Shown: piece by piece, positions 2,303 through 45,048 of the stretch
How positions within the stretch are numbered: the first letter of the stretch is position 1
Layout of the letters: each line of letters opens with the position of its first letter
The notes under the pieces: generated by a model
What the model saw: only the letters and a program-made list of their open reading frames with translations
Databases searched by the model: none
What the model was told of the DNA's origin: nothing
DNA from: Planctomycetota bacterium
GTDB lineage: Bacteria; Planctomycetota; Phycisphaerae; Sedimentisphaerales; Anaerohalosphaeraceae
Assembly (NCBI GenBank): GCA_023143375.1
Contig: JAGLHQ010000027.1
Span: forward strand, 1-45,048
Reading direction: 5' to 3'
Length of the DNA: 45,048 bases
Position numbers and translations under genes: made by a program

Positions 2303-3535
2303 TTATTTGCCTACAATGAAACAAACGTTAGTAGTTGCTGTCCCACCGATATTCAATGTTGCAACCTTACTTGCTCCTTCGACCTGATAGTCACCAGCAG
2401 TTCCAGTTACCTGCTTATAAGCATCAAGCAATTGTCTTGCACCTGTTGCTCCGACAGGGTGGCCGCATCCTATAAGACCGCCTGATGGATTGATCGGTAA
2501 TTTCCCGTCCATTGTTATCGTGCCGTCTTCGATAGCTTTCCATGATTGGCCCGGCTTGGTCAGGCCGAAGTGATCTATCGCCATGTACTCACTCGTTGTA
2601 AAGCAGTCATGAGTCTCTATCGCGTCAAGCTGCCAGCAGTCCTTAATCCCTGCACGACTGTAAGCATCCGTAATTGCCTTTCGTGTTACCGGCAAAACGT
2701 ATTGGCTCTCGGCAGAATCTGCAACCTTAGAAGCAAACTCTATCTTAGCGGTGGTATGCCCCCAGCCGAGTATGCCTGGAATATCAGAAAGACTGATACC
2801 TTTTTGTTTGGCATACTTTTTAGCGTATTTCTCCGATGCCAAATACATACACACTGCGCCATCGGTAACCTGGGAACAATCTGCTATCTTTATCTTGCCT
2901 TCAATACACGTATTATATTTACCTTCATTCAAGGCATGATCGAAATTCATAAACCATTCGCGAGTCTGTGCGTTCGGATTATTCCTGGCATTGGCATAAT
3001 TTATTGCTGAGATATGTGCGAGATGTTCATCCTTAAGACCATACCTTTTATCGTACTCATCGCCAAGCTTCCCAAAAAGCTTAGGAAATGGAAACTCTAT
3101 CCCATCGGCTTCTTTTTCAAAAAATGCGGCTGCCCCTAAAAACTCACCGCCTTTTGCAGGATCAACAGTCTTCATCTGCTCTACGCCTACAAGACAGACC
3201 AGATCATACATGCCTGCCTTTATATATGCCATCGCCGCCATGGCAGCTACGGCACTGGATGCACAGGCTGCCTCAAAACGAGTTGTAGGGATACCGGCAA
3301 AACTCGGATCAAAATCTATAAAGAATGCTCCAAGGTGACCTTGCTTACAATACAACTCACCAGCGAAGTTACCGATCAAAGCCGTATCAATATCACTTGG
3401 TTTAATGTCCGTAGCTTCTAAGCTTCCCTGATAAGCCTCACGCATCATCGCTGCGATGTGCTTATTTTCCCTGCTCCAGTTACGAGCAAAGTCTGTTTGG
3501 TATCCGCCTAAAATATAAACTTTTTCATCTTTCAT
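2303..3535 (-). CDS. SCP2-type thiolase (acetyl-CoA C-acyl/acetyltransferase family)
   Basis: 410 aa. The nucleophile Cys lies in 'FEAACASSAVA'. An 'ETHDCFT' (HDCF) loop is characteristic of SCP2-type thiolases. 'CGHPVGATGARQ' is the His motif. Confidence 0.8.
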   Translation of the reverse strand: MKDEKVYILGGYQTDFARNWSRENKHIAAMMREAYQGSLEATDIKPSDIDTALIGNFAGELYCKQGHLGAFFIDFDPSFAGIPTTRFEAACASSAVAAMAAMAYIKAGMYDLVCLVGVEQMKTVDPAKGGEFLGAAAFFEKEADGIEFPFPKLFGKLGDEYDKRYGLKDEHLAHISAINYANARNNPNAQTREWFMNFDHALNEGKYNTCIEGKIKIADCSQVTDGAVCMYLASEKYAKKYAKQKGISLSDIPGILGWGHTTAKIEFASKVADSAESQYVLPVTRKAITDAYSRAGIKDCWQLDAIETHDCFTTSEYMAIDHFGLTKPGQSWKAIEDGTITMDGKLPINPSGGLIGCGHPVGATGARQLLDAYKQVTGTAGDYQVEGASKVATLNIGGTATTNVCFIVGK

Positions 3536-3555
3536 TGAAAACTCCGGTTATTGAA

Positions 3556-4842
3556 CTAACGGGCCAGAAAATGCTTCCCATAGCCAGTTGCCATTTTTTC
3601 ATTCGAAATATCCATCAGCCCCGCTGGAATCTGGAAACCATTTTTATCAAGCAGTTGCATCGCGCAATCCCTACCACCTAACATTTCAACAATATGACTT
3701 GGAGATGCCCAGTTGAATCCATACGACATCACCTTGTCTATACCCTCGATGCCGTCTTCGAGTTCGGCGACCTCTCCGATGCGCCCATAAGAATATGCTA
3801 TATAAACACAAAGTATGTCCTTAACGATCTCCGCTTCTTTCGAGTGGGCCGTGAGTATCGTCTCGAATGCTTCTCTGTACATACCCATATGGATCTGATA
3901 TTTTGCTTTTTCAACAAATGCAACATGAGGAGATATGGCCGGGATATAGTCGCATGTCTCCGGGTCGAGATATACAAACTTGCCGCTTGGCAGTTTTTTA
4001 TAGAACCCGCCGTTGTCACGCGTCTTGTTACCAAGCATATTTTTGTCGATCATACTATTGATATAATCGGGAAGCACGAGCGAATGGTGCATCTCGTCAT
4101 TAGTATTTTCGTTTAGACTATCTATGATCGCCCTATGAATATCAAGACCAACAAGATCAAGCGTTGCAAGCGGAGGCATCAACCTGCCGGTATAGGGACC
4201 GATAAGGTAATCCATCATTTCAACACCATACTCGGCAGCAAGAGATGTAATTCTGTTAAACAGCAAAAAAGCTATCCTGTTACCGGCAAAACCTGCTACT
4301 GCCTTCGTTGGAATAACTACACGCCTGAGCTTCTTTTCAAGAAAAGTTTTGACGAAATTATAAACACTCTTATCGGTATCGCATGTCGAAGCGATCTCGC
4401 AGGCAAGCATTTTGCCGGGGGGATTATAAAAATGTGTTGACATGAAACGCTTTTTAAAACTTTCGCTTCTGCCGACCGGCAGCGAATCAAGCGGCAGCGA
4501 GGATGTCGTAGTTCCGATTATTGCATCGTCACGCCTGTGGGCGTCTATCATCTCATAGACCTGCTGCTTTATCTGAATATCCTCGGCAACACTTTCAATA
4601 ATAAGATCGGCTTTGCCAAGGGCTTCTGCGAGCATGGTGTCATAGTCGCCGCAAGTAATATTGTTTGCGATGACTTCGGAACGAGCCTGCTTAACAGCGC
4701 GATTTAAACCTCTCTCGGCGCTAGCCTTTGTCCTGCTGAGAAAATATACATCCAAACCCTGCTGGGCACACAGACCGCCGGTCAAACTTCCGACTGTCCC
4801 GCCGGAACCCAGAACCGCTACTGTTTTAATTCTTTCTGCCAT
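3556..4842 (-). CDS. NAD-dependent 3-hydroxyacyl-CoA dehydrogenase (long form)
   Basis: 428 aa. Rossmann motif 'VAVLGSGGTVGS'. HADH core 'IIESVAEDIQIK', 'TTSSL', 'THFYNPP...ACEI', 'GFAGNRI'. Confidence 0.8.
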   Translation of the reverse strand: MAERIKTVAVLGSGGTVGSLTGGLCAQQGLDVYFLSRTKASAERGLNRAVKQARSEVIANNITCGDYDTMLAEALGKADLIIESVAEDIQIKQQVYEMIDAHRRDDAIIGTTTSSLPLDSLPVGRSESFKKRFMSTHFYNPPGKMLACEIASTCDTDKSVYNFVKTFLEKKLRRVVIPTKAVAGFAGNRIAFLLFNRITSLAAEYGVEMMDYLIGPYTGRLMPPLATLDLVGLDIHRAIIDSLNENTNDEMHHSLVLPDYINSMIDKNMLGNKTRDNGGFYKKLPSGKFVYLDPETCDYIPAISPHVAFVEKAKYQIHMGMYREAFETILTAHSKEAEIVKDILCVYIAYSYGRIGEVAELEDGIEGIDKVMSYGFNWASPSHIVEMLGGRDCAMQLLDKNGFQIPAGLMDISNEKMATGYGKHFLAR

Positions 4843-23905: not shown

Positions 23906-24565
23906 CTACCCACCGCCCTTGCTAACATCAATATCGATCGCTATCGGGGCGGATACTTTATGGCCGAGGCGGGCGGCTTGAAGTCTTTGTAACTCGTGCA
24001 ATGCCTTATAAAGCGTTCGGTCGATGTGCGCCTCATAACGGCGGAACTTGCCTAGCGTGTTTGGCCCGGCGAAATCTGCGTGAACCGCCTGGCCCAGCGA
24101 CATTTTATTCGGCGGGGCATCTTTACTATCTGAGGCTGCCTTTGCCTTTGATGAACCGCCCGAAGTGACAACCTCGGTCCTGCCGCCTTCATAGTTTTTT
24201 ATGATCTTCATACGAGGTATATCATCACTGCTGCGTTTGCCATCAAGTTTTCTTGACTGAAAAGAAGACATGTTATCCAGAAGCTCGATCTCAATTTTGC
24301 CAACCCGTTTCAATCGCCAAAAAGACGCGATTATCCGATCTGCAAGAAGTTGCTCCAACTCACCTACCGGGGCAAGTTCTGAACACAACCGCCGGCGAAA
24401 CTCGGCGAACTCGATACCGCTTTCATCTTTTATAACAATATCGCCTGAGAGCAAGCCATGCTTTACGGAGTTTTTCGAACCGGTAAGCTTACCGGCAGCA
24501 GTCCGCGGGCCGGTAGAGTTTTGAGCGTTTCTTTGGTTTGCCTTGATCTGTTTTCCGGAAGTCAT
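23906..24565 (-). CDS. Conserved hypothetical protein (basic N-terminal 'ANQRNAQNSTGPRT..GK..S..N..KHGL' motif)
   Basis: 219 aa, ATG start, soluble. I recognise the N-terminal motif as a recurrent uncharacterised family but cannot assign a function. Confidence 0.5.
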   Translation of the reverse strand: MTSGKQIKANQRNAQNSTGPRTAAGKLTGSKNSVKHGLLSGDIVIKDESGIEFAEFRRRLCSELAPVGELEQLLADRIIASFWRLKRVGKIEIELLDNMSSFQSRKLDGKRSSDDIPRMKIIKNYEGGRTEVVTSGGSSKAKAASDSKDAPPNKMSLGQAVHADFAGPNTLGKFRRYEAHIDRTLYKALHELQRLQAARLGHKVSAPIAIDIDVSKGGG

Positions 24566-24661
24566 GTTAATTTGTTTTTATCCACTGATTTCACAAATGA
24601 CACAGATTAAAAAAAGATTAAAGGGCTTTTAGTCACAAAATACCAAAAAAAATCTAAGACT

Positions 24662-24698
24662 GGAACCACGAATGGACACGAATAGACGCCGATACTAA
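24662..24698 (+). repeat. Family A repeat, copy A1 (GGAACCACGAATG-ACAC-AAT core)
   Basis: GGAACCACGAATGGACACGAATAGACGCCGATACTAAT. It carries the mini-ORF ATG GAC ACG AAT AGA CGC CGA TAC TAA. Confidence 0.85.
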
Positions 24699-24898
24699 TT
24701 CAAGTTTAAAATATCCAATATCATCATGGTTAAATCGTGGATTCCTATTTTGGCTGGAATGATAAGTCGTATCAGTCAAAATGGGTTCGTTTCGTAATTT
24801 TCAGTTTGCAAAGCATCTTTGCGGCTAAATGTTGATAAACTCCGTCCCTGTCGGGTGCTAAACCATCCGAGAACAGACGCTACCCTTAAGGAAATCTC

Positions 24899-24924
24899 TG
24901 AAAAAATTAGCCGGCTACGCCGGC
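24899..24924 (-). terminator. Rho-independent terminator candidate downstream of wecB
   Basis: The minus strand reads GCCGGC-GTA-GCCGGC followed by TAATTTTTTC, about 57 nt after the wecB stop. Confidence 0.55.
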
Positions 24925-24980
24925 ATAAATCCGTTCTGCAAAACCACTTACGTATACATCGGCAGTTTGTCACGATGACT

Positions 24981-26075
24981 TCATGCCCTTGCAATTATAT
25001 CTGCAATACGCTCGGCGGCAGAACCGTCCCATAATTGCGGGATTTTTCCGCCGACATCACCGCCTGCATCCTTTATGGCCCGATAATGCTTCAAAATATC
25101 ATCGGTAGTAACATGCACTAGCCGATTGGTCCCCTCGGTTATCGTCACCGGCCGTTCCGTATTTTCCCGAAGCGTCATACATGGAACACCTAAAATAGTC
25201 GTCTCCTCCTGGATACCCCCGGAATCGGTCATAACCAAAGAAGCATTGCTCATTGGCCACAAAAAGTCCAGATACCCCACCGGATCAAGCAATATAAGCC
25301 CTTCCATCGCCTCAACACGCTTGCCAATATCTGTACCCTTGATATTGTTACGTGTTCGCGGATGAATCGGAAAAACTAGCTTAATATCTTTCTGTATCTC
25401 TTCAAAGGCTGTGATGATCTGGGCAAACGTTTCCATGTCATCGACATTACTCGGACGATGCAGCGTTATCACCACATACCCCTTTGCATCAAGTCCGAGT
25501 CTCCCCAGCACATCCGAGGCTTCAGCTTTTTTGCGATTGGCAACCAGCGTATCGATCATGACATTACCGACAAAGTGAACCCGCGCAGGATCGACGCCTT
25601 CATTATTAAGATTATCAACACCGGATTGTTCGGTAACAAAGAGCATGTCAGTTATGCTGTCAGTCAGCATACGATTGATCTCTTCAGGCATCTGCCTGTC
25701 AAAACTGCGAAGGCCTGCCTCGACATGTATGAGCTTAACCCCGAGCTTAACAGCTACAAGTCCGCAGGCGATAGTGCTGTTAACGTCGCCAACAACTAAA
25801 CAATAGTCAGCCTCTTTATCAATAACAACTTTCTCAAACCGTTTCATGATCTCTGCCGTCTGAACCGCATGGCTGCCGGAACCAACTTCAAGATTTATGT
25901 CCGGCTTAGGTATGCCGAGCTCGTCAAAGAAAAGCGTGCTCATTTTCCTGTCATAATGTTGACCGGTGTGAACAAGCGTTGATTCAAAACAGTCCTTCTC
26001 CTTTAACGCCCGCATGATAGGGGCGATCTTCATAAAATTAGGTCTGGCACCGCAAACACAAATAATCTTAATCAA
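24981..26075 (-). CDS. wecB: UDP-N-acetylglucosamine 2-epimerase (non-hydrolysing, WecB type)
   Basis: 'VCGARPNFMK', 'HTGQHYD', 'HVEAGLRSFD', 'TDSGGIQEE'. TTG start (no in-frame ATG nearby). Confidence 0.85.
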   Translation of the reverse strand: MIKIICVCGARPNFMKIAPIMRALKEKDCFESTLVHTGQHYDRKMSTLFFDELGIPKPDINLEVGSGSHAVQTAEIMKRFEKVVIDKEADYCLVVGDVNSTIACGLVAVKLGVKLIHVEAGLRSFDRQMPEEINRMLTDSITDMLFVTEQSGVDNLNNEGVDPARVHFVGNVMIDTLVANRKKAEASDVLGRLGLDAKGYVVITLHRPSNVDDMETFAQIITAFEEIQKDIKLVFPIHPRTRNNIKGTDIGKRVEAMEGLILLDPVGYLDFLWPMSNASLVMTDSGGIQEETTILGVPCMTLRENTERPVTITEGTNRLVHVTTDDILKHYRAIKDAGGDVGGKIPQLWDGSAAERIADIIARA

Positions 26076-26109
26076 AACATCGTCCTAAAATTAAAGTCCA
26101 AAACCTTTA

Positions 26110-27045
26110 CTATAAATTTTCCTTATACCAGTCGATTGCCTTGCGAATTCCCTCGTCAAAAGTAACCAAAGGCTCATAACCGATAACCTCCTTTGCCCTG
26201 CTTACATCAGCCAGCGAATGCTTGATATCCCCAAAACGAGGCGGCAGATACTTCGGAGCAATATCCTTACCAAGCAACTCGGCGATGGTACTTACAACCG
26301 TGTTTACAGTTACCGCATCCTTCGTAGAAATATTAAGAGCCTCGCCGTGCGTCTCTTTCGCATTAGCAGCGAGCCAGTTGGCGTTCATGACATTATCGAT
26401 ATAAGTAAACCCGCGGGACTGCTCGCCGTCATCGAATATCCCCGGCTGTTGATCTCGCATAAGCGCCGAAACAAACAAAGGGATCGCGGCTGCATACTGG
26501 CTGTTAGGATCCTGACGCGGACCGAAAACATTATAATAACGAAGGCACACGGTTTCAAACTTGTACGTTTGGTAATACGCTCTGAAATATATCTCGGCTA
26601 TCGCCTTAGTCGCACCATAAGGGCTGATAGGTGCTATGGGTAACTCCTCATGCTGAGGCAGAACAGGACACTCACCGTAGATCGCTGAGCTCGACGCGAA
26701 AACCAGACGCCTTACCCCAGCCGCCCTGCAAGCCTCAAGCACATTGAAAGTGCCGTCAACATTTACCTCATGCGTCGTCTTAGGATCGTCTATCGAACGT
26801 GGAACAGAACCTAAAGCCGCAAGGTGATAAACAACATCTACGCCTTTAACAGCTTTGGCAACAACCGCCTCATCGCGTATATCGCCTTCGATGATCTCAA
26901 TATCGGCCTTGATCTCTTCAAGATTCTCATGCTTACCCGTCTCGAAATTATCGAGCACACGAACCGTCTCGCCTTTGTCCAGCAGAAATCGTATCATATT
27001 ACTGCCGATAAATCCCGCTCCGCCTGTCACCAGTGATAGACCCAT
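26110..27045 (-). CDS. Extended-SDR NAD-dependent 4-epimerase (GalE/WbpP-like)
   Basis: 'VTGGAGFIGSN', 'ASSSAIYG', 'YGATK' (Y-x-x-x-K), 'RYYNVFGPRQ'. Confidence 0.7.
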   Translation of the reverse strand: MGLSLVTGGAGFIGSNMIRFLLDKGETVRVLDNFETGKHENLEEIKADIEIIEGDIRDEAVVAKAVKGVDVVYHLAALGSVPRSIDDPKTTHEVNVDGTFNVLEACRAAGVRRLVFASSSAIYGECPVLPQHEELPIAPISPYGATKAIAEIYFRAYYQTYKFETVCLRYYNVFGPRQDPNSQYAAAIPLFVSALMRDQQPGIFDDGEQSRGFTYIDNVMNANWLAANAKETHGEALNISTKDAVTVNTVVSTIAELLGKDIAPKYLPPRFGDIKHSLADVSRAKEVIGYEPLVTFDEGIRKAIDWYKENL

Positions 27046-27097
27046 AATCTTGACACCTTTCTAATCTAAAAAACTTAGTAAACGTTCAAACTTCAGA

Positions 27098-27133
27098 GAA
27101 CCACGAATGCACACGAATAGACACTAATACTAA
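27098..27133 (+). repeat. Family A repeat, copy A2 (left inverted arm of the GxxExxY cassette)
   Basis: GAACCACGAATGCACACGAATAGACACTAATACTAA. 26 of 31 nt are identical to the reverse complement of A3. Confidence 0.85.
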
Positions 27134-27162
27134 ACTTTCGTTTCATTTGCAGCCTATACTTT

Positions 27163-27546
27163 TTAACACACTACTCTTTTCCATTCCAATTTAGCACGCT
27201 TGAAATTCAGAATAACCCCAACTTTCAAGCCCGTGATTTTCAAGTAGTTCATCATTTGGCCCATTTCGTGGTTTGTAATTTCTCGAATCACCTTTGTGTC
27301 CACAACCAATTTCCCATGAGTGATCAAATCCGGCACATATTCACCGACTTGTACGCCTTTATACATAACTTCATATCGAGATTGCTGCTCAACCGAAACA
27401 TTTTTCAGTCCAAATTCAACAACTAAAGCATTTTCGTACGGCTTCTCCAACAAACCTTGTCCAAGCTCGTTTAGGACCTCCATAGCGCATCCAACAACCT
27501 CAAAAACCTCTTCTTTAAGAATCAATTCGTGTTCATTAGTGTTCAT
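27163..27546 (-). CDS. GxxExxY protein (PD-(D/E)XK nuclease-fold family)
   Basis: 'GQGLLEKPYENAL' contains G-x-x-E-x-x-Y, followed by 'VPDLI' and 'VVDTKV' core strands. The ATG at 27546 lies inside repeat A3 (MNTNEHE...). The track start 27576 is TTG. Confidence 0.75.
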   Translation of the reverse strand: MNTNEHELILKEEVFEVVGCAMEVLNELGQGLLEKPYENALVVEFGLKNVSVEQQSRYEVMYKGVQVGEYVPDLITHGKLVVDTKVIREITNHEMGQMMNYLKITGLKVGVILNFKRAKLEWKRVVC

Positions 27547-27556
27547 TCGTGGTTCC
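27526..27556 (-). repeat. Family A repeat, copy A3 (right inverted arm; supplies the SD, ATG and MNTNEHE of the GxxExxY gene)
   Basis: The minus strand reads GGAACCACGAATGAACACTAATGAACACGAA. Confidence 0.85.
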
Positions 27557-27577
27557 TTTTTCGTCAGCGGCTGCAAA

Positions 27578-28678
27578 CTAACTCAAAAACGCAAGCAGCG
27601 TATCCGCCGTAAAATCTTTCATCTCATCGGTCAGTTCAGGATAGACCGGCAATGCGATCACTTCCTTGCAAGCCTTCTCTGTTTCCGGCATATCGCCTTG
27701 CTTATATCCAAGATATTCAAAACACTTCTGCATATGAAGCCCAAGCGGATAATAAACACAACAACCGATATTATTCTCACGCAGATGCGCGAGCACCTCG
27801 TCACGCTTCGGCACACGAACCACATACTGGTTATAGATCGAAACACAATCCGCCTCGATATAAGGCGTCTCTACAACCGAACCGGCAAACTTTTTATTAT
27901 AATACGCCGCGTTGTCCCTGCGACCCTGCGACCACTCGTCAAGATATTGCAGCTTAACGAGCAACCCCGCAGCCTGCAGTGCATCAAGCCGGAAGTTACC
28001 GCCGACAACCTCATTAAAATATTTATGCCCGCCGCCGTGGTTCCGCATTATCAAAAGGTCTTTCTTAACTTCTTCGTCATTGGTAACCGTCATGCCGCCG
28101 TCACCGATACCGCCAAGATTTTTGCTCGGATAAAAACTAAAACACCCGATCATCCCGAAGCTGCCCGCCTTCTTACCCTTGTAGCTGCTGGTAACAGACT
28201 GCGCCGCATCTTCGATAACATACAAGTTGTGCTTCTTGGCGATCGCCATAATAGCATCCATATCCGCCATCTGGCCAAAAAGGTGAACCGGCAAGATAGC
28301 CTTGGTCTTATCGGTTATCGCCGCCTCTATCTTCGACGGATCAATGTTATATGTCTTAGGATCGATGTCCACAAACACAGCCTTTGCTCCCGACCTGTGA
28401 ATACATCCCGCTGTCGCAAAAAACGTAAACGGCGTCGTAATAACCTCGTCGCCTGCGCCGATACCAAGAGCCATCAAACTCATCAAGATAGCATCGGTAC
28501 CGCTCGACGCGCCAACCCCGTATTTACAATCGCTCGACGCCGCGATCTTTTCTTCAAGCTCGACAACCCGCGGGCCGTTGATACATATCTGAGAATCAAG
28601 AACCTCAGTTACCGCTGCCAACATCTCGTCCCTGATCTTCGCGTACTGCGCCTTTAGATCCAATAATGGTACTTGCAT
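27578..28678 (-). CDS. DegT/DnrJ/EryC1-family PLP sugar aminotransferase (WbpE-like)
   Basis: 'GTDAILMSL', 'VIEDAAQS', PLP-Lys 'SFYPSKNLGGIGDGG', 'MRNHG'. Confidence 0.85.
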   Translation of the reverse strand: MQVPLLDLKAQYAKIRDEMLAAVTEVLDSQICINGPRVVELEEKIAASSDCKYGVGASSGTDAILMSLMALGIGAGDEVITTPFTFFATAGCIHRSGAKAVFVDIDPKTYNIDPSKIEAAITDKTKAILPVHLFGQMADMDAIMAIAKKHNLYVIEDAAQSVTSSYKGKKAGSFGMIGCFSFYPSKNLGGIGDGGMTVTNDEEVKKDLLIMRNHGGGHKYFNEVVGGNFRLDALQAAGLLVKLQYLDEWSQGRRDNAAYYNKKFAGSVVETPYIEADCVSIYNQYVVRVPKRDEVLAHLRENNIGCCVYYPLGLHMQKCFEYLGYKQGDMPETEKACKEVIALPVYPELTDEMKDFTADTLLAFLS

Positions 28679-28826
28679 TCCAAATTACTCCGTTCCTTTT
28701 TTAAACTTATTGTATGTTTTTTGGCCTGCCGATTCGTCCGCAAACACTTCTGCGTCTTCACCGGCCTTGAGACATCCCAATGCCCCGCCCCATTAACTTA
28801 TCCATCACTCTATTCTGACGCAGTCA

Positions 28827-28897
28827 GAATAGTTTTGGTCATTTGAATTTCCGTATTAGTATTTGTTTAGAATTTCGAATTTAGTGCTTAGAATTTG
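28827..28897 (+). repeat. Family E repeat, copy E1
   Basis: The blocks aatagtttt...agtatttgtttagaattt...agt... are shared with E2. It is preceded by the hairpin ATTCTGAC-GCA-GTCAGAAT (28812-28830). Confidence 0.75.
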
Positions 28898-28913
28898 GGT
28901 AAATAGCCCATGG

Positions 28914-29918
28914 CTATTTTCCATGATCCTTCAATATCTTCTCGCGTTCTGCGATCACCATATCCGTATCCGTCATCATCTCAGCAAGCTGCTTAAACGA
29001 AACCTTAGGCTCCCATCCAAGCACCTTTTTCGCCTTAGTCGCATCTCCCAGCAAAAGGTCAACCTCAGTCGGACGGTAATAACGCGGATCGATCTCGACA
29101 TACTTTTCCCAGTCAAGATCGAGATGCCCGAACACCTCATCAAGAAACTCGCGAACAGAATAAGTATGCCCTGTAGCGACTACATAATCGTCAGGCTTGT
29201 CCTGTTGAAGCATCAACCACATCGCCTCGACATAATCGCCCGCAAACCCCCAGTCACGTTTAGCGTCAAGATTACCCAGAAAAAGCTTCTCTTGAAGACC
29301 AAGCTTAATCCGCGTCGCCGCACGCGTTATCTTACGAGTAACAAAAGTCTCACCCCGACGAGGCGACTCATGATTGAACAGTATCCCGCAACACGCAAAC
29401 AGATCGTACGCCTCACGATAATTAATCGTCTGCCAATGGCTATAAACCTTGCAACAGCCGTAAGGACTCCGCGGATAAAAACCCGTCGTCTCAGTCTGAG
29501 GCGTTTCGAGAACCTTACCGTACATCTCACTGCTCGATGCCTGATAAAACCTCGGCGGCGTCTTCATCGTCCTGATCGCCTCAAGAACCCTTAACGTCCC
29601 AAGCGCATCGGTGTCAGCCGTGTAGATCGGCATATCGAAACTAACCCGAACATGGCTCTGTGCACCGAGGTTATAAACCTCGTCCGGTTTAATATCATGG
29701 ATCACTTTCGAAAGATCGCCGCCGTCGGTCAGATCGCCATAGATCAGTTTCAGCTTAGGCTGATCGTGAGGATCCTTATACAAATGATCGATCCTCCCCG
29801 TATGAAACGACGAGCTGCGTCGAATTATCCCATAAACCTCATAACCCTTATCAAGAAGAAGCTCTGTAAGATAAGATCCGTCCTGACCCGTAATCCCTGT
29901 TATCAATGCCTTTTTCAT
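28914..29918 (-). CDS. gmd: GDP-mannose 4,6-dehydratase
   Basis: '[22 protein letters not shown]', 'QASSSEMYG', '[10 protein letters not shown]', '[10 protein letters not shown]'. The ATG at 29918 gives the canonical N-terminus; the 17 extra track codons lie in repeat C1. Confidence 0.9.
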
Positions 29919-29964
29919 ATCCGTCCTTAATATTCCATATATTATCAAAAATACATTACATCTT

Positions 29965-30027
29965 GTCATTCCAGCGAAAGTCGTAGATGCCTTAGTTTAC
30001 GCCCAAGGTGGTGCTGGAATCCATTTT
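29965..30027 (+). repeat. Family C repeat, copy C1 (long-loop hairpin upstream of gmd)
   Basis: gtcattccagcgaaagtcgtagat...gctggaatccattt. The ATTCCAGC/GCTGGAAT stem encloses a loop of about 38 nt. Confidence 0.8.
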
Positions 30028-30091
30028 TACATTTGTAACTTGTATCACCCAGCCAAATCAGCCGTAGGGTGTGCTTTAGCACACGCGGAAA

Positions 30092-31039
30092 CTAAACAAC
30101 ACCAAATATTTTCTCTTTATACCAATCAACTTCCGCTTTCACGCCGTCGACAAGCTTTGTCTTAGGATCATACCCCAACAACCGTCTTGCCTTATCGATA
30201 TTAGCAAACGTTCTGAGCTGATCCCCTTGCCTCGGCGACGTCAGCTTATACTTGCCCTTCTTACCCAATGCATCCTCGACAGCCTTGATCCCGTCAGCGG
30301 TACTCCGCTCCTGGTCCCAGCCGATATTTATTATCTCTCCGACGCAACTTTCCATGTTCTCAAGCACCGCGACAAACCCGTCGACAATATCGTCAACATA
30401 AGTAAAACTCCGAAGATGCTTTTTGCTCCCCTCGTAAAGCGGAAACTCCGTATCTTCAAGAATACTCTTGATAAGCTTCGGATAAAGTTTCTCGGGCCGT
30501 TCCCTTGGGCCGTAAACAGAAAACAATCGCAGCGAACAAACCGGCATGTCGTTTTCGGCCCCAAAGGTAAGCGCCATTCGCTCTGCCGCTAATTTCGTAA
30601 CCCCATAAAAAGATGCGGGCTCCGGAACAGTCTCTTCGCTCTCGGTGGCATACTTACCGTAAACAGAAGACGTAGACACATTGACAAACATCTTCAAACA
30701 CGACGACCCCTTCAAGGCATCCAGCAATCTATGCGTTGCCGTTATATTATTTCGTTTATAATCCTCAAAACTCGTCGCATCGCTTATCCCCGGCTGAGCA
30801 GCACAATGATAAACAACCTCGACACCTTTAACAGATTCGCAAAGATCGGACTCCGCAAGATCAAGCTCAAATATCCGAGCACCGCTTTTCTTTACATCAG
30901 CCGCATTAAGATCCTTAAGGCTCCGCGCATAATAATCGCTAAAACAATCCAGACCGATCACCTCGTGCCCCGTCTTAGCCAATCGCTCAGACAAATGAGA
31001 ACCGATAAACCCCGCTGCACCCGTAACAAGTATCTTCAT
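30092..31039 (-). CDS. Extended-SDR NAD-dependent epimerase/dehydratase (possibly UDP-glucuronate 4-epimerase-like)
   Basis: 'VTGAAGFIGSHL', 'STSSVYG', 'YGVTK', 'LRLFSVYGPRERP'. The substrate is not determinable from sequence alone. Confidence 0.65.
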   Translation of the reverse strand: MKILVTGAAGFIGSHLSERLAKTGHEVIGLDCFSDYYARSLKDLNAADVKKSGARIFELDLAESDLCESVKGVEVVYHCAAQPGISDATSFEDYKRNNITATHRLLDALKGSSCLKMFVNVSTSSVYGKYATESEETVPEPASFYGVTKLAAERMALTFGAENDMPVCSLRLFSVYGPRERPEKLYPKLIKSILEDTEFPLYEGSKKHLRSFTYVDDIVDGFVAVLENMESCVGEIINIGWDQERSTADGIKAVEDALGKKGKYKLTSPRQGDQLRTFANIDKARRLLGYDPKTKLVDGVKAEVDWYKEKIFGVV

Positions 31040-31308
31040 AAATTAACCTATAACCTTCACGATAAAATCTTTTAAATCAGTGAAATCAGTGGATAGACCT
31101 GTAACAAGCCCCAGCCGAAGGCTGGCTCCATATTTCTTTCCTCTGCGTCCTCTGTGCTCTCTTTTTCCGTGTTGAGCGTAGCGAAATCCAGCGCAGCTGG
31201 AGTGAAACTCGCCGAAAGAGAGCCTCTGGCGGATGGCAAAAACAACCACTGTTACATTTCTACTGTTCGCTGTCTGCGTAAGCAGCAACTAATTTAAACG
31301 CAAAACCT

Positions 31309-31339
31309 TTTTATTTAATTAGTGTCTATTAGTGTTCAT
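31309..31339 (-). repeat. Family A repeat, copy A4 (orphan)
   Basis: The minus strand reads GGAACCACGAATGAACACTAATAGACACTAA, giving the mini-ORF M-N-T-N-R-H-stop. It lies 18 nt after the ugd stop. Confidence 0.85.
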
Positions 31340-31356
31340 TCGTGGTTCCTTTTCCA

Positions 31357-32658
31357 CTACCCACGACCAATGCTATGATACTCAATTCCCTGCTTGCGAA
31401 CATACGCCGGCTCGTAAAGATTTCGACCGTCAAAAATAACCGCCTTATTTAATTTCTCTGCGATCACATCGAAGTCCGGAGTCCGGAACTCCTGCCACTC
31501 TGTAAATATCACCAACGCATCGGCACCGTCCAGCACGTCATAGCTCTTTTCGACTGTTGTTATAGCACCGTCAAGCTCTTCGCTCGCTTCCTTCATCGCC
31601 TCAGGATCATAAGCAACCACTTCCATGCCAGCCGCCAAAAATTTCCGTATACAACGTATCGAAGGAGCCTCACGTACATCGTCGGTCCTGGCCTTGAACG
31701 CAAGCCCCCAAACCGCAAGCTTTTTACCCGATGCATCATCGCCAAAATAATCCAGCACCCTCTGTGCGAATTTATCCTGCTGCCTGTAATTAACATGCTG
31801 AACAGCCTGAGCTATCGTCATCGGATACCCAACAGCATCGCCCATAAACTCCAGAGCCTTTACATCCTTAGGAAAACAGCTTCCGCCGTATCCGACGCCG
31901 GGAAACAAAAACGAACTGCCGATACGCGAATCGCTACCGATACCCGCTCGTACATTCTCAATATCTGCGCCGTACTTCTCGCACAATCCGCTAAGCTCAT
32001 TCATAAACGATATCCGAGTCGCAAGCATAGTATTCGCTGCATACTTGCTCATCTCAGCACTGGCAGTGTCCATAAAAAGTATCCGGCTGCTCTTACGCAT
32101 AAACGGAGCGTACAACTGACGCATGATCTCTCTGACCTCTTCTTTTTCGTTACCGATGATGATCCTGTCAGGCTTCATAAAATCATCGACCGCAGAACCC
32201 TCTTTCAAAAACTCAGGGTTGCTAACATAATCGAACTTTTGTTTCGTCTTAGAACTCATCACGTCGGCCACCTTTTTGCCCGTGCCCACAGGAACAGTGC
32301 TTTTGGTAACCACTATCCTGTAACCGTCCATGCACTCGGCGATCTTACCGGCAACATCCAGCACCGCCGATATATCCGCCGACCCGTCCGCAGAGCTTGG
32401 TGTTCCAACGCCGATAAAGATAACCTTAGAGTTATTAACTCCCTCGCTAATATCCGTCGTAAAGACTAGCCGTCCGTCGGACTCGTTCTTTTTAACGATC
32501 TCGGTAAGCCCCGGCTCATAGATCGGGATCACGCCTTTTTTAAGTGCGTCGATCTTCTTCTTATCGTTGTCAATACAGATAACATGATTACCGCCCTCTG
32601 CCAGACAACCCGCCGCCACAAGACCTACATATCCTATTCCGACTACTGCTATCTTCAT
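31357..32658 (-). CDS. ugd: UDP-glucose 6-dehydrogenase
   Basis: 'KIAVVGIGYVGLV', catalytic Cys 'GGSCFPKDV', 433 aa. Its ATG overlaps the upstream stop (ATGA). Confidence 0.85.
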   Translation of the reverse strand: MKIAVVGIGYVGLVAAGCLAEGGNHVICIDNDKKKIDALKKGVIPIYEPGLTEIVKKNESDGRLVFTTDISEGVNNSKVIFIGVGTPSSADGSADISAVLDVAGKIAECMDGYRIVVTKSTVPVGTGKKVADVMSSKTKQKFDYVSNPEFLKEGSAVDDFMKPDRIIIGNEKEEVREIMRQLYAPFMRKSSRILFMDTASAEMSKYAANTMLATRISFMNELSGLCEKYGADIENVRAGIGSDSRIGSSFLFPGVGYGGSCFPKDVKALEFMGDAVGYPMTIAQAVQHVNYRQQDKFAQRVLDYFGDDASGKKLAVWGLAFKARTDDVREAPSIRCIRKFLAAGMEVVAYDPEAMKEASEELDGAITTVEKSYDVLDGADALVIFTEWQEFRTPDFDVIAEKLNKAVIFDGRNLYEPAYVRKQGIEYHSIGRG

Positions 32659-35930: not shown

Positions 35931-35989
35931 AAATAGTTTTAGTATTTGTTTTTTTGAAATTTGTATTTGTTTAGAATTTAGTATTTTTT
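35931..35989 (+). repeat. Family E repeat, copy E2
   Basis: aaatagttttagtatttgttt...tatttgtttagaatttagtatt. It is preceded by the hairpin TTCGG-TGTAAG-CCGAA (35917-35932). Confidence 0.75.
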
Positions 35990-36021
35990 TTAATCTGTGT
36001 AATCTGCGAAATCCGCGGTTT
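35979..36021 (+). repeat. Family D repeat, copy D2
   Basis: tagtattttttttaatctgtgtaatctgcgaaatccgcggttt. It lies downstream of folE. Confidence 0.8.
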
Positions 36022-36957: not shown

Positions 36958-36980
36958 TCTGTATCTCCCTTTTATCTTTT

Positions 36981-37052
36981 AAATCTCTGTGTTCTCTATG
37001 CCCTCTTTTTCCTCTGTGGCAAAAATACCTTTTTATCCAGCCGAAGGCTGGA
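36981..37052 (+). repeat. Family B repeat, copy B2 (3' flank of pepA)
   Basis: aaatctctgtgttctctatgccctctttttcctctgtggcaaaaatacctttttatccagccgaaggctgg. Roughly 90% identical by eye to B3. Confidence 0.85.
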
Positions 37053-37096
37053 ATTACCGTCTCATTCGTGCCTTTTTGTGTTAATTCGTGGCTGAA

Positions 37097-38623: not shown

Positions 38624-38695
38624 CTCTATTCCCTTAAAATATTTTAAATCGTCTCCGCGTTAGCGGATTCCATAATTTTACTTTCTATCTCTTTT

Positions 38696-38766
38696 AAAAC
38701 TCTGTGCTCTCTGTGCTCTCTTTTTCCTCTGTGGCAAAAATAACCTTTTATTCAGCCGAAGGCTGA
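38696..38766 (+). repeat. Family B repeat, copy B3 (5' flank of pepA)
   Basis: aaaactctgtgctctctgtgctctctttttcctctgtggcaaaaataaccttttattcagccgaaggctga. Shorter relatives occur at 31141-31170 and 35881-35910. Confidence 0.85.
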
Positions 38767-38897
38767 AACAATTCGTGCTTTCTCCGTCCTTAAAAACTTA
38801 TGGAGTCTTGTTCGCGGCATTGCTCAGACAGCCAAAGTAATAGATTGATTATCTGCCTATTAGGCAGTTCGTGACCAAATCTGTTTTTATTCTTTAA

Positions 38898-44820: not shown

Positions 44821-44909
44821 CTATAAACCCTCGTTTTCTCATAAAAATATCAAACTTAAAAAAGCCGCTCCTCTGTACCGACAAAATATCACAACGCATA
44901 CAAAACAAC

Positions 44910-45048
44910 AAGGCGGTTTTCTCAAACCCAAGCAGAAATTGCCGCAAAAACGCAAGGTGCTTTTCTCAAACCCAAACAGAAACACCGCAAAATCCCAAAA
45001 ACGCTAAGGTGCTTTTATTGAATCCAAGCAGAAACGCCATAACGCCTA
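44910..45048 (+). repeat. Imperfect tandem repeat (3 units, running off the window edge)
   Basis: Units start at 44910, 44954 and 45006: AAGG(C/T)G(G/C)TTTT(C/A)T(C/T)(A/G)AA(C/T)CCAA(G/A)CAGAAA. The core is ~28 nt and the periods are 44 and 52 nt. Confidence 0.75.

Follow-up and report, generated by a model that had tools for sequence, protein, structure and literature searches.

The GxxExxY Unit and Its Arms

The element considered here lies in contig JAGLHQ010000027.1 of a bacterium of the Planctomycetota, of which a stretch of 45,048 nucleotides (nt), hereafter called the window, was analysed. It is a unit of 458 base pairs (bp; positions 27098-27555) in which a single gene of the GxxExxY family is enclosed by two inverted 31-nt repeats, here called arms, within a series of sugar-nucleotide genes (Table 1). 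The arms stand 396 nt apart and are 84% complementary (26/31), compared with at most 24/31 for the best 31-nt inverted match in 200 shuffles of a 900-nt region. An earlier, sequence-only reading of this DNA had recognised the 26/31 match, the matching outer ends of the arms (GAACCACGAATG on both), the 127-amino-acid (aa) GxxExxY open reading frame (ORF) as the only content, and the location between a 4-epimerase gene and an aminotransferase gene, all of which stand. It had placed the right arm one base off, at 27526-27556 on the minus strand, and given the unit as 459 bp and the distance from that arm to the aminotransferase stop as 21 nt, which is really 22 nt.

Each arm consists of three 10-nt units, in which a 7-nt core of the form CRCNRAT (CACGAAT, CACTAAT and similar) is followed by three free bases, and GAAC precedes them; the arm model used below comprises 25 constrained core positions. 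A point missed in the sequence-only reading is that the gene starts inside an arm. On the gene strand, the 5' arm reads GAACCACGA-ATG-AACACTAATGAACACGAAT, and it is this ATG that initiates the GxxExxY gene, with the start codon (27546-27544) and codons 1-7 (MNTNEHE) falling within the arm; the AAGGA immediately outside it is a likely candidate for the ribosome-binding site. On the other side, the outer end of the 3' arm lies 65 nt past the gene stop and 52 nt ahead of the ATG of the epimerase gene, and the spacer between gene and arm may, by eye and with low confidence, be a decayed extra plus-oriented arm. All of the genes neighbouring the cassette share its strand, and genes for a GDP-mannose 4,6-dehydratase and a UDP-GlcNAc 2-epimerase lie further around. 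The whole window contains no second GxxExxY gene, and its single copy appears to be intact and, within the population, fixed.

The Encoded Protein

The protein matches TIGR04256 (GxxExxY) with an E-value of 2.1e-36 and 124.8 bits (cutoff 35) over positions 3-116 of the 116 in the profile, and PF13366 (PDDEXK_3) with an E-value of 9.5e-34 and 116.7 bits (cutoff 22); it has no other Pfam domain. The motif that names the family is present as G31-L-L-E34-K-P-Y37, whose G31, E34 and Y37 are shared by all of 44 homologues, and the PD-(D/E)XK signature as P72-D73 ... D83-T-K85, with no variation at E34, D73 or K85 and at least 90% conservation of D83. By this catalytic signature, the protein is assigned to the PD-(D/E)XK nuclease superfamily, and it is predicted to have nuclease activity. 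The AlphaFold2 model, which is of moderate confidence (predicted local distance difference test (pLDDT) of 68), has helices (H) and strands (E) in the order H-H-E-E-E-E-H-E-E, and the arm-encoded residues 1-10 are predicted to be disordered. Its best Foldseek matches in the PDB are to the Cas4 protein SSO0001, lambda exonuclease and ACE1 (E = 4e-3 to 5e-2; template modelling (TM) scores of 0.4-0.5), with a Cas4-family protein among the first ranks, but these matches are weak, and a search of the PDB by sequence returned only noise. The family is large (9266 representatives when clustered at 50%, 7476 clusters at 90%), and its function has been listed as 'Unknown', with 'multiple transfers, mixed clades' (PMC3424549).

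Recurrence of the Arm-Gene-Arm Unit

The relatives of the window protein were taken from the 7476 clusters at 90% (E <= 1e-5), and the best 120 were inspected. These are 75-89% identical to it, bear the labels Planctomycetota, Phycisphaerae, Lentisphaeria, Verrucomicrobiota, Kiritimatiellia and Victivallales, and begin with M-N/D-T/A-N-x-H/R-E, the peptide encoded by the arm, which is sometimes preceded by an extension called upstream (EPRM...). In species genomes, 402 stretches encode a relative, and among the best 80 (65-87% identical), the ATG lies within an arm in 60, which come from more than 12 phyla. An inverted copy of the locus's own arm variant follows no more than 400 nt past the stop in 58 of these 60; one of the two exceptions is a contig end and the other a true absence. 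The same test made elsewhere in these loci gave a background of 0.054 per 400 nt, compared with 0.97 observed. Arms therefore surround other GxxExxY genes too, and their similarity is not due to the general density of repeats, two matters on which the sequence-only reading had made its proposal of a mobile unit depend.

The same figures bear on the simplest explanation of the bracket, namely that the genome is dense in arm-like repeats (family A of the sequence-only reading) and that a gene with no relation to them has come to lie between two of them by accident. Two more full arms and cousin repeats are indeed present in nearby spacers of the window. Against this, the bracket is found at 58 of 60 independent loci where 0.054 is expected per locus, the start codon is always inside the arm, and an empty site (locus L208, see below) lacks both arms and the gene together. 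Chance is thus extremely improbable and effectively excluded.

The layout varies in detail at the 3' end, where the outer end of the arm lies up to 40 nt past the stop in 24 loci (the arm starting 2-5 nt past the stop) and 41-100 nt past it in 27, often via an extra plus-oriented arm that completes a hairpin. The window copy, at 65 nt, falls in the second class, and about 20 relatives have the form of a gene followed by a full hairpin. In the 58 loci, arm complementarity spans exactly positions 1-31 and is at the background level outside. Among the 20 loci without an ATG in the arm, at least 10 keep significant flanking repeats of a like kind, sometimes as hairpin-ORF-hairpin.

Across phyla, protein identity is 65-89%, and the cultured carriers include Luteolibacter algae, Mariprofundus sp. 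KV and Verrucomicrobiaceae E54. In the cultured Bacteroides finegoldii, a member that is 34% identical lies between radA and a gene for a FAD-protein and is bracketed by a cousin of the arms, a 30-nt inverted repeat with 9-nt units (CACAGAG / CGCAGAG / CACGGAG), which begins 2 nt past the upstream stop and finishes 5 nt ahead of the next ATG. Starts of the form M[ND][TA][ND], as in the arm-encoded peptide, were found in 40 of the 150 best 50%-cluster representatives. With these starts and the B. finegoldii bracket, the association is family-wide and not confined to a single clade.

Several loci have features of their own. At L207 (Terriglobia chromosome OX638355.1, about 2980-3440), the inverted repeat extends 12 nt beyond both arms, aagatgaacggc|GAACC ... 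GGTTC|gccgttcatctt, and this is the only locus seen with such an extension. At three others, whole hairpins, each made up of an arm, a loop, an arm and a spacer, are repeated in tandem next to the GxxExxY gene, with periods of 108 nt (L172, 2441-2920), 174 nt (L154, 2600-3631) and 141 nt (L180, 2710-3746). A reading of these arrays as akin to clustered regularly interspaced short palindromic repeats (CRISPR) was dropped because the 'spacers' of L172 are identical copies, which shows that the arrays are tandem duplications.

The arrays and the hairpin-ORF-hairpin form of some loci, together with promoterless small ORFs between imperfect hairpin sites, recall integron cassettes, in which the arm pairs would be attC-type sites for a tyrosine recombinase. 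However, by inspection, the outer ends ..AAGGAACC / GGTTCAAA.. (GGAACC / GGTTC and then an A-rich flank) do not fit RYYYAAC / GTTRRRY, each arm repeats a single unit three times in direct orientation instead of having R and L boxes, and the cassettes stand singly between large operon genes rather than arrayed by an integrase. The gene lists around the window copy and in two other populations hold only operon genes, although no dedicated search for an integrase was made. An integron-type cassette is therefore very improbable and, like chance, effectively excluded. Resemblances of the arms to attC, to dif/Xer sites and to DnaA boxes were likewise dropped on inspection.

Gene-less Arm Pairs and Other Cargo

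Arms also occur without the gene. The exact pattern GAACCACGAATGNACACNAAT is present at at least 120 loci in the contigs of a collection with one genome per species. The matches listed are from Verrucomicrobiota, Planctomycetota, Lentisphaerota, Kiritimatiellota, Hydrogenedentota, Acidobacteriota, Chloroflexota, Armatimonadota, Desulfobacterota, Nitrospinota, Bacteroidota and several proteobacterial classes, and they include the cultured strains Desulforhopalus vacuolatus DSM 9700 and two isolates of the Opitutaceae. In these listed loci, which were themselves selected by an arm, the 25-position model found 239 arms, compared with none in shuffled sequence. Neighbouring arms up to 1 kb apart were convergent, with their GAACC ends outward, in 64 cases, divergent in 7 and direct in 36, and the gap between convergent arms ranged from 6 to 405 nt.

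Gene-less pairs, which consist of an arm, a short spacer and an inverted arm, are several times commoner than gene-bearing units. Intact GxxExxY genes are present inside the arm pairs of L037, L060 and L079 and a pseudogene inside that of L041, while at L110 the gene is internally deleted and a C-terminal remnant is left between intact arms. Most gene-less pairs, however, have no trace of a gene and are not deletion derivatives.

Other sequences can occupy the place of the gene. A second protein-coding cargo is found at L048 (76-390), where an arm pair surrounds a zinc-ribbon-like ORF of 70 aa that contains two CxxC pairs (MKCPNCNAEL...CSDCETAV). On Versatilivorator and Terriglobia chromosomes, arm pairs surround a conserved module of 130-330 nt (Table 1) with a spurious ORF, MNTNRHEYGWTSFNDKRR...; this module has no convincing ORF and no Rfam match and could be a non-coding cargo or an RNA. 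At L082 (about 3094, minus strand), a RhuM-like ORF of 356 aa starts with MNTNEHEF at an arm that has no partner downstream. Finally, L126, a short-read (Logan) contig of the window's own population, has its first bases (1-32) within the 3' arm, which points to arms as places where assemblies are apt to break.

What Constrains the Arms

Inverted arms within a transcribed operon could act at the level of RNA. The arms would pair in the polycistronic messenger RNA and loop out the ORF, and the stem would hide the start codon or be cut by RNase III, in the manner of the intervening sequences of 23S rRNA that carry an ORF, so as to control the expression of the gene and separate the flanking messages; pairs that lack the gene would punctuate operons or act as hairpins for stability. 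Such a role would accord with the position of the start codon inside the 5' arm, with the pairing of the arms in both the minimum free energy and the centroid folds (-128.5 kcal/mol, z = -2.95), and with upstream stops at arm positions 11-13 (an ATGA overlap) or 21-23, which suit translational coupling. The cassette is, moreover, mostly co-directional with its neighbours, and 30 gene-less pairs lie after genes, compared with 3 between divergent genes.

A maintained stem, however, should keep its variable positions complementary, and this is not what is seen. Core positions are almost always Watson-Crick between the arms of the 58 units, whereas the free positions 12, 13, 18, 22, 23 and 28 are paired in only 20-39 of these 58 and, similarly, in 12-27 of the 47 gene-less pairs; for the variable arm positions as weighed against an RNA stem, the counts are 20-31 of 58 and 12-27 of 47. 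Mismatches on the sense strand show no excess of G:U over A:C (54 compared with 68). Partner arms agree at 166 of 348 free positions, compared with 156 +/- 7 when partners are permuted, and so are no more alike there than random partners. No match to Rfam 15 was found in the window at the gathering score, in 24500-31500 at E-values up to 1, or in nine hairpin loci. Lastly, arms that are nearly identical across phyla of differing GC content are unexpected for a stem processed by the host. An RNA-level role is therefore considered unlikely.

The purine (R) positions behave differently from the free ones, since partner arms agree at 364 of 406 of them, compared with 263 +/- 10 with permuted partners. 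These positions define the variants of the motif (CAC/CGC and GAAT/GGAT/AGAT). One variant is common to the arms of an element, and even to neighbouring gene-less pairs, and the variant tracks the clade of the protein. L134 and L136 are orthologous regions that encode proteins 93% identical to each other, and both have eight arms at matching places, all eight of the CAC type in L136 and seven of eight of the CGC type in L134, while the spacers and the rest of the arm are unshifted. GC pressure as the sole cause of this switch was rejected on inspection, as the spacers and other A positions are unchanged, and gene conversion between arms as the cause of the concordance was rejected because the free positions are not homogenised. 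Two variants can also coexist in one region, as at L138, where a gene-less CACGGAT pair (2678-2753) lies beside a CGCGAAT-armed gene (2992-3771), which resembles the presence of several repeat families within one genome.

Agreement at the purine but not at the free positions thus points neither to the maintenance of base pairs nor to wholesale copying from arm to arm. The contrast is what would be expected of a sequence-specific factor carried along with the element, and such a factor is favoured over pairing or copying. The third-position GC content (GC3) of the gene body follows the GC content of the host (r = 0.70; slope 1.43) and the arms stay conserved, which suggests that cassettes have resided long enough to ameliorate while their arms were held.

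Insertion Site, Mobility and Context

An empty site was sought among 80 loci that encode relatives of the aminotransferase, in none of which does a cassette lie next to this gene. The closest is L208, from a metagenome-assembled genome of the Sedimentisphaerales, in which the genes for the aminotransferase (its protein 85% identical), 4-epimerase (79%) and 2-epimerase (88%) are arranged as in the window, with a 65-nt spacer that contains neither an arm nor a GxxExxY gene. The downstream part of this spacer still aligns with the window; the junction was placed by eye, as the MAFFT alignment misplaced the gap. An empty site in a relative, one of the signs of insertion named in the sequence-only reading, is thus present, whereas the other, a target-site duplication, was not found: direct repeats with k = 2-5 at offsets of -2 to +1 show no excess over permuted partners. 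Homologous BREX (bacteriophage exclusion) operons, as read from the list of neighbours, carry the cassette at different junctions.

Signs of recent movement were looked for in contigs with exact copies of the window protein, of both its neighbours, and of the proteins P0021 and P0108, and each was found in a single context. The viral contigs of IMG/VR contain no relative, and relatives on plasmids are only 28-36% identical and all on non-mobilizable records, so that a plasmid or phage vehicle is not supported. Copies in the same genome are not nearest relatives, and much of the spread across phyla may therefore ride on the transfer of whole defence or glycan operons.

The cassettes sit between co-directional operon genes, on the same strand as 44 of 57 upstream and 35 of 55 downstream neighbours. 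The upstream ORF often terminates inside the 5' arm, either at the TGA of ATGA (arm positions 11-13, 5 loci) or at a TAA, TAG or TGA at arm positions 21-23 (12 loci), and the next gene usually begins 10-25 nt past the 3' arm. Contexts verified by Pfam are SbcD-like | SbcC-like, HsdM, DNA methylase, BrxL, RhuM, and TrpE | TrpG; others are SppA | PFK, and RhuM | type III Res. Roughly one cassette in two is in a restriction-modification, BREX or SbcCD-like operon and the others are in metabolic operons like that of the window, an assignment partly read from N-termini. Genes of the RhuM family accompany the cassette in restriction-modification operons at L298-L307, L136, L140, L170 and L197.

This frequency in defence operons gives some weight to another explanation, in which the arms belong to a repeat like a miniature inverted-repeat transposable element (MITE), moved by an unlinked enzyme or by host recombination, and the GxxExxY gene is no more than the cargo it carries most often, with a function of its own in the cell such as that of an accessory nuclease of defence islands. 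The zinc-ribbon-like ORF of L048, the non-coding module, the RhuM-like gene headed by an arm at L082 and the many gene-less pairs with no trace of the gene can all be accommodated in the same way. However, no hidden Markov model of PADLOC or PHROGs matches the protein, and no other protein family recurs between arms. The association with arms persists down to about 34-40% protein identity, which a cargo that is only carried along would hardly show, and the motif variant tracks the protein clade. A cargo role for the gene is therefore not thought likely.

A Proposed Selfish Cassette

The explanation to which we incline, with a probability of about one half, is that the 458-bp unit is a copy of a widespread selfish cassette, of a kind resembling either homing genes or the pairing of REPINs, doublets of repetitive extragenic palindromic (REP) sequences, with their REP-associated tyrosine transposases (RAYTs), and that the arms are predicted DNA sites recognised by the encoded nuclease. 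This agrees with the proposal of the sequence-only reading that the unit is a mobile or formerly mobile element with a nuclease fold and not a glycan gene, which the recurrent bracket and the empty site of L208 fit; movement, its mechanism and the action of the nuclease on the arms are inferred.

At either end of the unit, the arm would present three recognition sites, all on the same face of the DNA helix, to a sequence-specific factor that is passed on together with the arms, and the obvious candidate for this factor would be the encoded nuclease, which might cut at or between the arms. The unit could then spread either by excision followed by insertion or, once the nuclease has broken a gene-less arm pair, by repair that uses a copy with the gene as template and the 31-bp arms as homology. 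Gene-less pairs would be non-autonomous partners, as REPINs are to RAYTs. An insertion of this form also leaves the operon functional: the upstream gene terminates at or within the 5' arm, in which both other frames meet a stop, and the following gene begins 10-25 nt past the 3' arm.

Several observations weigh against such a cassette. The absence of a target duplication and of a strand-transfer enzyme, the single contexts, and paralogues that are not nearest relatives are all unfavourable to a simple transposon. The only ORF of the unit is that of the 127-aa PD-(D/E)XK protein, with no recognisable DDE, serine or tyrosine transposase, and, to our knowledge, a nuclease of 127 aa could not join strands on its own. 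Identical proteins of P0021 (14 contigs) and P0108 (13 contigs) are each in one genomic context, and the two copies in one genome at L192 and L206 are not each other's closest relatives. The empty site is a single one, with flanking proteins 79-88% identical, and so does not polarise insertion with respect to precise loss. The lack of any trace of the gene in most gene-less pairs, the cargo other than GxxExxY between some arms and the replacement of arm-ORF-arm by hairpin-ORF-hairpin at some loci are further difficulties. The concordance of variants is inflated by shared ancestry, its robust part being the contrast between classes of positions. For the protein itself, the moderate model (pLDDT 68) and the weak fold matches (E = 4e-3) count on the same side, as does the lack of any biochemistry of the GxxExxY family in the published literature searched.

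A bolder version, which is possible but rather doubtful, is that these units constitute a new class of selfish elements, with a PD-(D/E)XK nuclease of about 125 aa as the sole enzyme that they encode. This nuclease would recognise six 10-bp sites in its own inverted arms and would propagate both itself and the large population of gene-less pairs across more than 12 phyla, with the protein and the specificity of the sites co-evolving. If true, this bolder version would provide a function for thousands of uncharacterised proteins of the family.

Further Arms and Repeats in the Window

Four arms in the window have all 25 constrained positions (24663+, 27098+, 27555- and 31348-) and one more is weak; all are intergenic (Table 1). 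On the gene strand, the four full arms follow the order arm+, arm+, gene, arm-, arm-. The outer pair, 24663-24693 and 31318-31348, is also convergent (92% over 26 nt), and the approximately 6.7 kb inside it holds five sugar-nucleotide genes and the cassette. The arm 27098-27128 complements the arm 31318-31348 better (94%) than it does its own partner (84%). The arm at 24663 may have a decayed partner at about 24722-24749.

Table 1. Coordinates of the cassette, its neighbours and other arms in the window, and of arm pairs around the conserved module at other loci (last row)
Feature	Position	Strand	Remarks
5' arm of cassette	27525..27555	-	gene-strand reading GAACCACGAATGAACACTAATGAACACGAAT; three 10-nt units, cores CACGAAT / CACTAAT / CACGAAT
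GxxExxY gene	27163..27546	-	127 aa plus stop
Spacer, gene stop to 3' arm	27129..27162	-	34 nt; gene-strand reading AAAGTATAGGCTGCAAATGAAACGAAAGTTTAGT
3' arm of cassette, inverted copy	27098..27128	+	plus-strand reading GAACCACGAATGCACACGAATAGACACTAAT
DegT/DnrJ/EryC1 aminotransferase, upstream neighbour	27578..28678	-	stop 22 nt from 5' arm
NAD-dependent epimerase/dehydratase (4-epimerase), downstream neighbour	26110..27045	-	ATG 52 nt from 3' arm
Gene-less arm	24663..24693	+	25/25 core positions; spacer downstream of UDP-GlcNAc 2-epimerase gene
Gene-less arm	31318..31348	-	25/25 core positions; 8 nt past stop of UDP-glucose/GDP-mannose dehydrogenase-family gene (31357..32658)
Degenerate arm	37064..37094	-	21/25 core positions
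Conserved-module arm pairs	L034 2162-2510, L038 1912-2291, L073 532-924, L081 3078-3278, L100 5123-5315, L109 5330-5678

Two other kinds of repeat occur in spacers of the window. One is a cousin of the arm (24579-24608 on the plus strand, 31066-31095 and 35985-36018 on the minus strand) that has a like design with another head, ..ATCCACTGATTTCACAAATGACACAGAT; its units CACTGAT / CACAAAT / CACAGAT, spaced by 10 nt, fit CRCNRAT, and its copies are mutually 80-85% complementary. The other (31141-31168, 36985-37012 and 38700-38727) has units of the CTCTGTG / CACAGAG type, which is the type that brackets the B. finegoldii GxxExxY gene, and two 79-nt copies of it, 36975-37053 and 38690-38768, are 90% identical.

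A strong terminator-like hairpin (GCCGGCGTAGCCGGC and then a T-run; 24910-24924, minus strand) follows the UDP-GlcNAc 2-epimerase gene, so that the operon probably ends before the arm at 24663. Just past the glycan operon, an ORF of 219 aa without a Pfam match (23906-24565, minus strand) keeps its position in the other contigs of the population. At the end of the window, 44901-45034, there are three tandem copies of a 38-nt unit, CAAAACAACAAGGCGGTTTTCTCAAACCCAAGCAGAAA, which are 74-84% identical and spaced by 44 and 52 nt.

Significance and Comparison with Known Systems

PF13366/TIGR04256 is now tied to a defined element in cis, the 31-bp arm with its three 10-bp units, which is nearly unchanged from Planctomycetota to Acidobacteriota and Gammaproteobacteria. 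In the published literature searched, no description of the arms or of the arm-gene-arm bracket was found, although database family notes or other journals may hold one. In the glycan locus, the GxxExxY ORF has no role in glycan synthesis and should not be counted as a gene of the pathway. If the link between nuclease and arms holds, it would give a second, horizontally spreading counterpart to the REPIN-RAYT system with a different nuclease fold, and it would account for short hypothetical ORFs beginning 'MNTNEHE...' and 'IRVHSW...', for N-terminal extensions of neighbouring genes and for assembly breaks at arms. Read as a selfish nuclease gene bounded by repeats and accompanied by non-autonomous partners, the cassette is of a known kind, and it is in the fold of the nuclease and in the design of the repeat that it differs from the known ones.

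In the REPIN-RAYT system, REP doublets are associated with a REP-associated tyrosine transposase (Bertels & Rainey, PMC3337134), and the published REP super-families are palindromes headed by GTAG or CGTC (PMC3733652). The cassette is similar in having a small nuclease-type gene with inverted flanking repeats, many gene-less hairpin doublets dispersed in intergenic DNA, a repeat variant that goes with the clade of the protein, and several families that can coexist in a genome. It differs in that its enzyme has the PD-(D/E)XK fold (PF13366 only), whereas RAYTs are HUH/Y1 (IS200-like), and in that its arms are three direct 10-bp CRCNRAT units starting with GAACC, whereas REP sequences are self-palindromic. 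Moreover, its gene is multi-copy, present in more than 12 phyla and 65-89% identical, whereas RAYTs are single-copy and vertically inherited, and its start codon is inside the 5' arm.

With MITEs and insertion sequences that end in terminal inverted repeats, the cassette shares sharp-ended 31-bp terminal inverted repeats, many short gene-less derivatives, a deleted copy (L110) and an empty site, but it has no target-site duplication, no transposase and no recent jumps that were seen, and most of its gene-less pairs are not deletion derivatives. With free-standing homing endonuclease genes, it shares a small nuclease gene wedged between undisrupted host genes, a patchy spread across lineages, and pseudogenes and remnants; PD-(D/E)XK is among the known folds of homing endonucleases (I-Ssp6803I). 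Homing genes, however, are not bounded by conserved inverted repeats, and the presumed target of the cassette is a dispersed pair of repeats rather than a cognate allele.

Two further systems are comparable in outline. The intervening sequences (IVSs) of 23S rRNA carry an ORF for a four-helix-bundle 'IVS protein' (TIGR02436) and, like the cassette, combine a small ORF from a large scattered paralogous family with an inverted-repeat bracket in a transcribed unit; the cassette differs in its location in an mRNA operon, in arm pairing without compensatory change and in its protein family. In pdif modules, genes on Acinetobacter plasmids are flanked by inverted Xer sites. The cassette resembles these modules in that genes are bounded by a short inverted recombination site in varied contexts, whereas its arms lack the layout of XerC/XerD half-sites plus a 6-bp spacer, and the cassettes themselves are chromosomal, with only distant relatives on plasmids.

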